A stretch of DNA of 64,000 nucleotides from Escherichia phage T4. Position 1 is the stretch's first letter. The number at the start of each line of letters is the position of its first letter. Location: sequence record OZ209023.1. One strand, given 5' to 3'. This document shows, in pieces, positions 26,686-41,562 of this stretch. The position numbers and the translations under genes were made by a program. The notes below the pieces were generated by a model that worked only from the letters and a program-made list of their open reading frames with translations, was not told the DNA's origin and did not search any database.

Positions 26686-27267
26686 CTAACCGAGCTTTTT
26701 AGTTAATTCATTCCAATGTTTTCTACACAAAGAAACATAAATTTCATCACCAATACAAATTTGATTACCTTCTTTAACTGGTGTTCCATCTTCCATTAAT
26801 CGAGCTGTCATAATCGCTTTTTTACCACAATGACAAACTGCTTTTAGTTCAATAAGTTTATCTGCAATCGCTAAAAGTTCTTTAGAACCTTCAAATAATT
26901 TTCCAGCGAAATCAGTCCTTAGCCCATAAGCCATAACAGGAACATTATATGTATCAACAATTCGGCTCAATTGATGCACCTGTTCAGTTTTTAAAAACTG
27001 AGCTTCATCTACAAATACGCAATGAATATCTTTTTGTGCTTCAGCCCATTTATAGAACTCGAAAATATCCATATCATCTGTAATAATATTCGCTTCCTGC
27101 TTAATTCCAATGCGAGAAACGACTTCACAGACAGAATCGCGAGTATCAATAGCAGGCTTAAGAACTAATACACTCATTCCACGTTCTTTATAATTATGTG
27201 CAGCAGTCAAAAGAGAAGCAGATTTTCCAGCATTCATTGCTGCATAAGTAAAAATTAAACTCGCCAT
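26686..27267 (-). CDS. tk: Thymidine kinase
   Basis: 193 aa; P-loop AAMNAGKS and C-terminal zinc-cysteine cluster CHCGKK...CRKHW. Confidence 0.9.
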   Translation of the reverse strand: MASLIFTYAAMNAGKSASLLTAAHNYKERGMSVLVLKPAIDTRDSVCEVVSRIGIKQEANIITDDMDIFEFYKWAEAQKDIHCVFVDEAQFLKTEQVHQLSRIVDTYNVPVMAYGLRTDFAGKLFEGSKELLAIADKLIELKAVCHCGKKAIMTARLMEDGTPVKEGNQICIGDEIYVSLCRKHWNELTKKLG

Positions 27268-27268
27268 C

Positions 27269-27457
27269 TTAGTCCTTAGTTAAATTTTCTAAATATGTTT
27301 CTAAATCATTTTCAGCTTTATCGATAGATTTTACTAATTCGTAATATGTTTCGGCATCTCCATATTCAGAAGATATTTCAAAAGACAAATCCTTTTCTAA
27401 ACTAATAATTTCACCAACTAAAAATAATATTTCGTTCTTTTGTTCGCGAGTAATCAT
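27269..27457 (-). CDS. Small acidic helical protein (tk.1 position; paralog family member)
   Basis: 62 aa; MITREQKNEILFLVGEI. Confidence 0.55.
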   Translation of the reverse strand: MITREQKNEILFLVGEIISLEKDLSFEISSEYGDAETYYELVKSIDKAENDLETYLENLTKD

Positions 27458-27645
27458 AAGGAATTTATATAATCAATGAGTTCTTGTTCTTTATTATCGA
27501 ATTCTTTAGAAAGTTCTTCGTACTCGTTTGCGCTAAAAGGACCGCATTCATTACAAACTTTTTCCAATTCACTATTTTTATCCATAACTTCGTGGATAAG
27601 AGAAAAGAGTGTGTCTTTTTGTTCTTTGCTTAAACTCATAACCAT
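27454..27645 (-). CDS. Small acidic helical protein (tk.2 position; paralog family member)
   Basis: 63 aa; SLSKEQKDTLFSLIHEV. Confidence 0.55.
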   Translation of the reverse strand: MVMSLSKEQKDTLFSLIHEVMDKNSELEKVCNECGPFSANEYEELSKEFDNKEQELIDYINSL

Positions 27646-27863
27646 GTCACCTTTAAGCAGTATTCTTCTACATGCTGTTTACGACCTTTCTTATCAATAA
27701 AGGTATATTCAACGAATGTTCCAATGTAGTCTTTATCTACATCATGTGGACTATTAATTGGACATTTAGTGCGACAAATGCGTTCCCATTGACGAATAAT
27801 TACTGCCTTATTCTTTGGGTCATATGGATGTGGATAATGTATATTCATAATAATGGTTCCCAA
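27636..27863 (-). CDS. Hypothetical protein (tk.3 position)
   Basis: 75-aa ORF. Confidence 0.5.
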   Translation of the reverse strand: MGTIIMNIHYPHPYDPKNKAVIIRQWERICRTKCPINSPHDVDKDYIGTFVEYTFIDKKGRKQHVEEYCLKVTWL

Positions 27864-28312
27864 TCAACAATCACAATTTCTAATTTAGAGGAATATGTAT
27901 CTAAAATCCCCTCAATAATATCCCAGTTCCCTTTACCTATGCCTGCACCAATCCTAGGCATATAGATTGTAGGTTTAATCAGTTTATTTTCACCAAACTC
28001 ATTTAATTCTAACATACAATTCATTAAAGCGGAATACTCAAAATTTGGCCCTGGTTGAAATTGAGTATAAAGATTGAAGCAGTAAGCTTTATGAGTCCTA
28101 AAGTATTTTTCATAGACTGAGTAAGAACCGAGTTTAGTTACATCACCCCATTCAGTCTGTAATTTATCAGCTTCCAAAATTTTAGGGAAAGCTTTGGTTA
28201 ATTGACCCGCTACGCCTGAACCCATAGTATGAAAACAATTACATCCATGTGCAATATTTTTACCTTCAGCGAAAAGGGCGACAATATCGCCCTTGATATA
28301 TTTTACAATCAT
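27845..28312 (-). CDS. Macro-domain protein (tk.4 position)
   Basis: 155 aa; NCFHTMGSGVAG and IGAGIGKG resemble the macro-domain N-x6-GG[VLI] and G-[IV]-x-G ADP-ribose-binding loops. Confidence 0.55.
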   Translation of the reverse strand: MIVKYIKGDIVALFAEGKNIAHGCNCFHTMGSGVAGQLTKAFPKILEADKLQTEWGDVTKLGSYSVYEKYFRTHKAYCFNLYTQFQPGPNFEYSALMNCMLELNEFGENKLIKPTIYMPRIGAGIGKGNWDIIEGILDTYSSKLEIVIVDWEPLL

Positions 28313-28656
28313 CTAGTACTCAATCCTCGATTATAAGAATCTACCAAACGGTCAACCATTGAATGACAAGCGGCTTTATCTTTCTCCTCCGCAACTGAAC
28401 ATTCTAAGGTATTCCACTTTTTAGCATATCGTTTTAACAATGTATCGTTTTTGTATCTGCTTGATTTATCTCTTTCTCCGTCTTTATATGCATATATTAA
28501 TTTCTGTGCAAATTCAGCTTGGCATGCCTTATTTTTCCCACAATAATCTGCCGCAGTGCGGTTTACATATTCTCTAATTTCAGTATATGATGTATCTGCT
28601 GACGCAGAAGCAGAAAATGAAATTAATCCTATACATAAAACCAAAATTTTAGTCAT
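28309..28656 (-). CDS. vs: Valyl-tRNA synthetase modifier Vs
   Basis: 115 aa with signal-peptide-like N-terminus; length and position as T4 vs. Confidence 0.7.
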   Translation of the reverse strand: MTKILVLCIGLISFSASASADTSYTEIREYVNRTAADYCGKNKACQAEFAQKLIYAYKDGERDKSSRYKNDTLLKRYAKKWNTLECSVAEEKDKAACHSMVDRLVDSYNRGLSTR

Positions 28657-29194
28657 TTACTATTTCCAAAAGTTTATTATTTTTAAGGTAATTAGCCTTT
28701 TCTAGGACTTCAGAAGCATATTTAGAACCTGCTTTAACATTCCATCCCGAATTATAAGAGGATATTGCTTTTCTTATATCGCCCTTATGTATATTTAACC
28801 AATAAGAAAGTTCAATGTACGCCCAGGAAGCTGAATTGGATCGTTTATTCAACATTCTTTTTATTTCAGCATCGGTCATATTATAACCAAGTTCCTTAAC
28901 TCTTGCTCGCATAGTAGGCAAATAATTTTGGAACATTCCGTAGGCGTGATGCTTTGGTTTAGATTTTAAATTAACTCCGCCAGAGCTTTCTTGCCATAAA
29001 ATGGCAGCCATTATATGACCTAATCCGCTCTTGTGGATATTTTTGTGTGTTTTATATTTTCCATCCTTAGAAAATTGTTCCCCGAATTGATACGCGTAAC
29101 GCATGTTATCGAGTTGGACATTACTGAAAGTATGCTCGGAGCTATGTGCCATCATTGAAATGGCCAATAGACCAGCGAGTAGTGCTTTTCTCAT
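28649..29194 (-). CDS. Secreted lytic-transglycosylase-like protein (vs.1 position)
   Basis: 181 aa; signal peptide then ILWQESSGG...YGMFQ, an SLT-like catalytic region. Confidence 0.6.
   Translation of the reverse strand: MRKALLAGLLAISMMAHSSEHTFSNVQLDNMRYAYQFGEQFSKDGKYKTHKNIHKSGLGHIMAAILWQESSGGVNLKSKPKHHAYGMFQNYLPTMRARVKELGYNMTDAEIKRMLNKRSNSASWAYIELSYWLNIHKGDIRKAISSYNSGWNVKAGSKYASEVLEKANYLKNNKLLEIVND

Positions 29195-33417: not shown

Positions 33418-34386
<969 letters not shown>

Positions 34387-34405
<19 letters not shown>

Positions 34406-40865: not shown

Positions 40866-41562
<697 letters not shown>

Follow-up and report, generated by a model that had tools for sequence, protein, structure and literature searches.

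Phage T4 Tk.4 (AdfM) is an ALC1-like macro-domain protein with a predicted glutamine-type active site like that of SCO6735

Introduction

DNA ADP-ribosylation by DarT is a widespread anti-phage defence, and the erasers that phages carry decide which of them escape. SCO6735, a stand-alone macro domain from Streptomyces, frees DarT-modified thymidine of ADP-ribose faster than DarG or TARG1 do, rescues E. coli from DarT, and has no activity on guanine-ADP-ribose (PMC9411070). The Q85A variant of SCO6735 is inactive and the N27S variant nearly so; the authors' model is a water-mediated reaction, with Asn27 locking Gln85 so that this residue positions the distal ribose, and a mobile loop was proposed to be used for DNA binding (PMC9411070). 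Uracil-ADP-ribose in RNA is likewise hydrolysed by SCO6735 and by TARG1 (PMC13036486). On the phage side, gp104 of PhiKZ, which was independently also named AdfM, removes DarT2-made ADP-ribose from an oligonucleotide in vitro, and this activity is reduced by the N23A substitution (2026 Cell Reports, PMC13309987).

Other anti-DarT factors of phages have folds unrelated to that of Tk.4, the T4 protein considered here. AdfA of T4 and AdfB of ICP1, a toxin binder of 77 residues, act by binding the DarT toxin. AdfN, the NADAR protein encoded by T4 gene 30.3, is an analogous orphan eraser for DarT1-made guanine-ADP-ribose, is again unrelated in fold, and does not counter DarTG2. T4 without adfA and adfN was still resistant to DarTG2, and a further factor had therefore been predicted. 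That factor is tk.4, as supplied by HIDEN-SEQ, a transposon-sequencing study posted in November 2025 (bioRxiv 10.1101/2025.11.20.689424). In this preprint, tk.4 was the single significant T4 match on a DarTG2-expressing host, a clean tk.4 knockout was DarTG2-sensitive, and T5 served as the DarTG2-sensitive control; the authors gave the gene the new name adfM (anti-DarT factor Macrodomain) and proposed that its product removes ADP-ribose from DNA enzymatically, by analogy with M. tuberculosis DarG (10.1101/2025.11.20.689424). Genetically, the need for tk.4 on DarTG2 hosts is documented in this one preprint, whose accessible part compares T4 AdfM with M. tuberculosis DarG alone and mentions neither a Gln-for-Lys site nor biochemistry.

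The macro domain itself had been noticed much earlier, a match of tk.4 orthologues to A1pp (macro) having been published in 2006 (PMC1524935). The product carries the RefSeq label 'phosphatase; contains A1pp phosphatase motif'; in newer records it is a 'macro domain-containing protein', and in PHROG 335 a 'phosphatase'. The literature searched contained no biochemical assay of Tk.4. Both the domain assignment and the anti-DarTG2 role of tk.4 are already published, and the class of the active site is the sole increment of the present analysis. An initial annotation made from the DNA sequence knew of no assigned function for this reading frame, a statement overtaken by the reports of 2006 and 2025. 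Its proposal of a counter-measure against ADP-ribosylation-based immunity was borne out by the sole HIDEN-SEQ hit and the sensitised knockout.

Results

We analysed a stretch of 64,000 nucleotides of Escherichia phage T4 (record OZ209023.1), referred to as the window. The open reading frame at 27845..28312 on the minus strand, which starts with ATG and encodes 155 residues followed by a stop codon, maps exactly to T4 gene tk.4 (NP_049723.1), now adfM, and specifies a 17.5-kDa protein consisting of a single, stand-alone macro domain of the ALC1-like class. Positions 27400-28800 of the window are 100% identical to T4 records including NC_000866.4, AF158101.6 and HM137666.1. The gene is part of a tightly packed minus-strand run, regB-vs.1-vs-tk.4-tk.3-tk.2-tk.1-tk; it had initially been described as lying downstream of tk, but since all genes there are on the minus strand, tk.4 lies upstream of tk with respect to transcription. 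ATGA overlaps connect it with both neighbours. At 28309..28312 (minus strand), the TGA of vs (28311..28309) overlaps the ATG of tk.4 (28312..28310), as read from the sequence, and at 27845..27848 (minus strand), the stop codon of tk.4 (27847..27845) overlaps the annotated ATG of tk.3 (27848..27846). The vs/tk.4 overlap suggests translational coupling inside one operon. A scan for sigma-70-type consensus sites that could serve as a tk.4-specific promoter gave 15 sites against 15.6 in shuffled sequence, and a promoter or terminator belonging to tk.4 itself was rejected on the basis of this shuffled-level count and the ATGA overlap on either side. With two overlaps and no promoter excess, tk.4 appears to lie inside a longer transcription unit and to be translationally coupled.

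Several features of the immediate surroundings were recorded. The gene vs (valyl-tRNA synthetase modifier) occupies 28309..28656 on the minus strand, sharing the ATGA with tk.4, and in the HIDEN-SEQ preprint no T4 gene was more strongly depleted in minimal medium relative to LB (10.1101/2025.11.20.689424). On the other side, tk.3 as mapped from RefSeq extends over 27636..27848 (minus strand) with its ATG at 27848 and encodes 70 residues, whereas the mechanical list of open reading frames gave a TTG start, 27636..27863 (minus strand) and 75 residues; the RefSeq product name of tk.3, 'Tk.2 conserved hypothetical protein', is wrong. Within tk.4, an 8-bp inverted repeat with 5 GC (AAGGGCGA...TCGCCCTT) is located at 28274..28294, in codons 7-13, with a run of T behind it on the plus strand. 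On the antisense strand the repeat was flagged by the scan as terminator-like, and the same hairpin would form in tk.4 mRNA, 18 nt past the AUG.

Tk.4 is a genuine macro-domain protein of the ALC1-like class. Pfam profile PF01661 matched Tk.4 with 27.7 bits (gathering threshold 22, E 2.9e-6) over profile positions 2-113 of 118. When a profile of 64 Tk.4 homologues was compared with the PDB, macro domains were retrieved exclusively, including BT1257 (1e-17), Poa1p (1e-14), TARG1 (2e-14), M. tuberculosis DarG (4e-14), SCO6735 (1e-13) and T. aquaticus DarG (3e-11). The AlphaFold2 model predicted from the alignment of the same 64 homologues (mean pLDDT 95.7) has the three-layer alpha/beta/alpha macro fold, and the nearest structural and sequence relatives of Tk.4 lie within the ALC1-like class (TARG1, DarG, Poa1p and SCO6735). 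The initial annotation had read the frame as macro-domain-like and had named profile and structure prediction as the checks; both returned a macro match and confirmed that reading. The two glycine-rich segments to which it had pointed are both present, NCFHTMGSGVAG at residues 25-36 and IGAGIGKG at residues 121-128. Within them, M30-G-S-G33-V-A35 and I121-G-A-G-I-G-K-G128 align with the corresponding loops of TARG1, DarG, BT1257 and Poa1p, and the two loops are predicted to bind ADP-ribose. A six-frame HMM search detected exactly one macro domain in the 64-kb window (3e-64) and no ALC1-like macro domain in phage T5 (best E 0.076), and a further macro domain in either was thus rejected.

Residue conservation was counted in 258 homologues collected from many phage and bacterial lineages. 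Loop 1, N25-G36 (28205..28240, minus strand), comprises the conserved Asn25 and the predicted first glycine-rich phosphate/ribose-binding loop. The family motif around it, H22-G23-C24-N25-C26...M30-G-x-G33-x-A35, aligns with H-V25-C-N27 of SCO6735, N..VMGKG of DarG and MGAGIA of TARG1; A35 is present in all 258 homologues, N25 and G33 in 257 each, and H22 in 246. Loop 2, I121-G128 (27929..27952, minus strand), is predicted from the alignments to be the second glycine-rich, diphosphate-binding loop. In this region P119, I121, G122 and G124 are invariant, and Gly126 occupies the column of the catalytic Asp125 of TARG1. The codon of Gln84, in the motif N80-L-Y82-T83-Q84, lies at 28061..28063 (minus strand) and falls in the column of DarG Lys80, TARG1 Lys84 and SCO6735 Gln85; every one of the 258 homologues has Gln at this position. 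Cys24, Cys26, Asp49, Asn80 and Tyr82 are family-specific invariant residues, and the calculated pI of Tk.4 is acidic (5.9).

The placement of Gln84 on the catalytic Lys was obtained from three independent alignments, made with hmmsearch (TARG1 and BT1257), MAFFT and hhalign (T. aquaticus DarG). In the hmmsearch and hhalign alignments, the same column is also Gln in BT1257 and in SCO6735 (Gln85). Because MAFFT placed the Gln region wrongly for SCO6735 and BT1257 when eight sequences were aligned, we used the alignments from the HMM and from hhalign there, and these agree with the published structure-based alignment (PMC9411070). Judged from these alignments, the predicted active site of Tk.4 is Gln-type and SCO6735-like, distinct from those of DarG and PhiKZ AdfM.

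Sequence variation has been described at one end of loop 1. The window has Gly36 (GGT) at codon 36 (28205..28207), and Gly is the majority residue in the consensus of the 64 homologues. A tk.4 variant, 106A>G (Ser36Gly), was found between T4 sublines in old T4 stocks (PMC8573959), and the Ser36 allele would fall in the first glycine-rich ligand-binding loop.

Streptomyces coelicolor SCO6735 and Bacteroides BT1257 (PDB 5e3b, 2fg1, 2afc) are stand-alone ALC1-like domains as Tk.4 is, and both are classed as thymidine-ADP-ribose DNA hydrolases, an activity proven for SCO6735. Tk.4 is 25-29% identical to them, and it has both the Gln and the locking Asn, Q84 and N25 corresponding to Q85 and N27 of SCO6735. 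In contrast, the mobile loop of T4 Tk.4 has 7 residues, and that of SCO6735 and BT1257 has 5-6 more and bears lysine; within the Tk.4 family the length of this loop ranges from 7 to 15 residues, T4 having the shortest. In hydrolases of the SCO6735/BT1257 type the loop exceeds that of DarG and TARG1 by about five residues. Tk.4 also has Gly23 where SCO6735 has Val25, and its pI is acidic where those of SCO6735 and BT1257 are basic. Compared with human TARG1/OARD1 (4j5r), the catalytic dyad Lys84/Asp125 is replaced by Gln84/Gly126. Yeast Poa1p (6lfq), which is known as an ADP-ribose-1''-phosphate phosphatase, differs from Tk.4 in having Ser at the Lys/Gln position and an insertion of about 20 residues. 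The two proteins share the H-x-C-N-C motif (H22-G-C-N-C26 in Tk.4, H-S-C-N-C in Poa1p), which includes the His mutated in PDB 6lfs (H23A).

The possibility that Tk.4 is a DarG was rejected. Against the DarG equivalog model NF048014 of NCBIfam, Tk.4 scored 30.3 bits (cut-off 250), and the match covered positions 2-146 of the 338-position model, the C-terminal DarT-binding domain being absent. The column of the catalytic Lys80 of DarG (FPTK) holds Gln84, and the T4 neighbours of tk.4 are vs and tk.3, with no DarT next to it. The DarG2 macro domains used in the comparison (T. aquaticus, 5m31/5m3e; M. tuberculosis, 5m3i) have, unlike Tk.4, both the catalytic Lys and a DarT-binding C-terminal domain. 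The idea that the two AdfM proteins are closely related was rejected as well. PhiKZ gp104 keeps the DarG-like Lys (FPTKDNW) where Tk.4 has Gln84, and BLASTP of Tk.4 against gp104 gave E 0.005 over 23 residues, whereas gp104 matched M. tuberculosis DarG with E 9e-25. The weak match of the former pair and the strong match of the latter indicate that T4 and PhiKZ AdfM belong to different sub-branches of the class.

Homologues of Tk.4 were found by tblastn in 2,750 of 50,697 phage records (~5%), mostly myoviruses of enterobacteria, Pseudomonas, Vibrio, Acinetobacter and Aeromonas. An exhaustive profile search yielded 17,975 representative clusters at E <=1e-3, 1,213 of them at <=1e-30, and bacterial homologues were present at no fewer than 513 loci. 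The ORFs within 1.5 kb of the bacterial homologues were clustered all against all in 80 loci; no conserved neighbour emerged and no cluster occurred in more than 9 loci, in a comparison based on ORF clustering, which could miss a rare association with DarT. The neighbours inspected resembled housekeeping genes, such as those for an ABC-transporter ATPase and an aminoacyl-tRNA synthetase. A conserved partner gene, which would have indicated a toxin-antitoxin origin, was rejected for want of a recurrent cluster in these loci, and the bacterial homologues therefore fit stand-alone erasers like SCO6735 and not antitoxins.

Fusions of the Tk.4-type domain, recognised by the YTQ motif, were also found. 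One protein of 472 residues (P0194) combines it with NADAR and DUF4326, one of 302 residues (P0257) with DUF4326, and one of 247 residues (P0239) with NUDIX. The guanine-ADP-ribose erasers AdfN and DarG1 have the NADAR fold, and NUDIX enzymes degrade free ADP-ribose. These partners tie the Tk.4 family to the reversal of base ADP-ribosylation and to the disposal of its product. The Macro-NADAR fusion would join in one protein two activities that in T4 reside in separate proteins, AdfM for thymidine and AdfN for guanine.

Discussion

The enzymatic activity, substrate and catalytic mechanism that we infer for Tk.4 follow the SCO6735 model. Replication is blocked when DarT2 ADP-ribosylates thymidine in single-stranded DNA, and Tk.4 would bind the ADP-ribose with its two glycine-rich loops and hydrolyse the N-glycosidic bond of thymidine-ADP-ribose, giving free ADP-ribose and replicable DNA. 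The route would probably be Lys-independent and water-mediated as in SCO6735, with Gln84, held by Asn25, positioning the distal ribose and the catalytic Lys of DarG and TARG1 not being used. We consider it quite probable that such Gln/Asn-assisted hydrolysis by Tk.4 strips thymidine in T4 single-stranded DNA of its ADP-ribose and thereby protects against DarTG2. For the thymidine-eraser explanation we counted the HIDEN-SEQ genetics of tk.4, the Gln84 and Asn25 shared with SCO6735, the in vitro activity of PhiKZ AdfM, the fusions to NADAR and NUDIX, and the finding that DarTG2-sensitive T5 has no detectable ALC1-like macro domain where the T4 window has one. We counted against hydrolysis that Tk.4 is only 20-29% identical to any characterised thymidine-ADP-ribose hydrolase, that it does not have the longer, lysine-bearing mobile loop of SCO6735, and that it is acidic, although the active PhiKZ AdfM is acidic too.

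In the 258 homologues, which represent many lineages, the residues expected for catalysis and ADP-ribose binding are invariant, as in an enzyme. This makes it unlikely that Tk.4 neutralises DarT2 mainly by stoichiometric binding and not by hydrolysis of ADP-ribosylated DNA, even though the phage anti-DarT factors AdfA and AdfB provide a precedent for toxin binding and the dead Q85A variant of SCO6735 still inhibits DarT in vitro, beyond dead DarG or TARG1 (PMC9411070). In addition, binding of this kind is at odds with the absence from Tk.4 of the DarT-binding C-terminal domain of DarG, and with the stand-alone bacterial homologues, whose 80 loci have no conserved partner by ORF clustering.

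The HxCNC motif in common with Poa1p means that Tk.4 could have other substrates. On one such reading the main substrates of Tk.4 would be small molecules: it would act as an ADP-ribose-1''-phosphate phosphatase, or would degrade O-acetyl-ADP-ribose or immune signals derived from ADP-ribose, and the DarTG2 phenotype would be a side activity. In favour of such a function are the label 'phosphatase' and a comparative-genomics proposal made earlier, but the label is a legacy of the A1pp domain name and does not come from an assay. T4 RNA repair (Pnkp and Rnl1) is not known to generate ADP-ribose-1''-phosphate. A small-molecule function would also leave unexplained why tk.4 was the sole hit on the DarTG2 host, and we regard it as very improbable. 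The degradation of NAD-derived signals, which the initial annotation had offered as an alternative, received no support in this analysis.

The annotation's other alternative, regulation of the phage's own ADP-ribosyltransferases, fared no better. The targets of Alt and Mod are arginines, whereas the characterised substrates of the ALC1-like class are Glu/Asp esters and thymidine or uracil bases. T4 has three such transferases (Alt, ModA and ModB), to which a phage eraser would be a logical partner, and SCO6735 and TARG1 act on ADP-ribosylated proteins too (PMC9411070), but an eraser or tuner of Alt/Mod protein modification is scarcely credible given this mismatch of targets, that nothing in this analysis supports it, and that the accessible part of the preprint describes no tk.4 phenotype besides DarTG2 sensitivity (10.1101/2025.11.20.689424).

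Returning to hydrolysis of thymidine-ADP-ribose, the substrate range of Tk.4 may be broader, because SCO6735 and TARG1 also act on uracil-ADP-ribose in RNA. Tk.4 might then represent a lineage, found throughout phages, of base-ADP-ribose erasers that rely on Gln in place of Lys and are separate in origin from DarG antitoxins, with wider substrates (uracil in RNA, acidic protein residues) and directed against further nucleic-acid-ADP-ribosylating defences besides DarTG2; we put this forward tentatively and consider it rather doubtful.

The T4 case is settled at the genetic level, and its remaining value is mechanistic. The difference between Gln in T4 AdfM and Lys in PhiKZ AdfM implies at least two separate acquisitions of anti-DarT2 erasers by phages, from different macro branches. 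By the same difference between active sites, mutagenesis or inhibitor design built on the catalytic lysine of DarG would not transfer to enzymes of the T4 type, the more frequent of the two in enterobacterial myoviruses.

Two other genes of the window are worth recording. The gene nudE (33950..34405, minus strand), 5.6 kb from tk.4, encodes a T4 Nudix hydrolase annotated as active on ADP-ribose. The proposed Tk.4 reaction would release free ADP-ribose; together with the Macro-NUDIX fusion P0239, the presence of nudE hints at a pathway of two steps, erasure and disposal. Gene 57B (40866..41324, minus strand) is another counter-defence gene and bears an outdated RefSeq name, 'RNA ligase'; it is Acb1, an anti-CBASS protein that degrades cyclic nucleotides, according to the HIDEN-SEQ preprint (10.1101/2025.11.20.689424).

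The window is not identical to the T4 reference throughout. RefSeq stretches of 6.4 kb and 12.7 kb in NC_000866.4 have no exact match in it, and tk (26686..27267) differs from NC_000866.4, while tk.3, tk.4, vs and regB match exactly. Because of these differences, the window appears to represent a T4 isolate or subline that deviates slightly from NC_000866.4. The matches to the tk.4 region included OL964745.1 / PV958097.1; there, one T4-labelled record has two 'macro domain-containing protein' features under the match, and this doubled annotation may reflect a split or frameshifted tk.4. In a T2 record, the 1.4-kb query matched as two pieces across 1,774 bp, a pattern that suggests a putative insertion in the tk.4 region.
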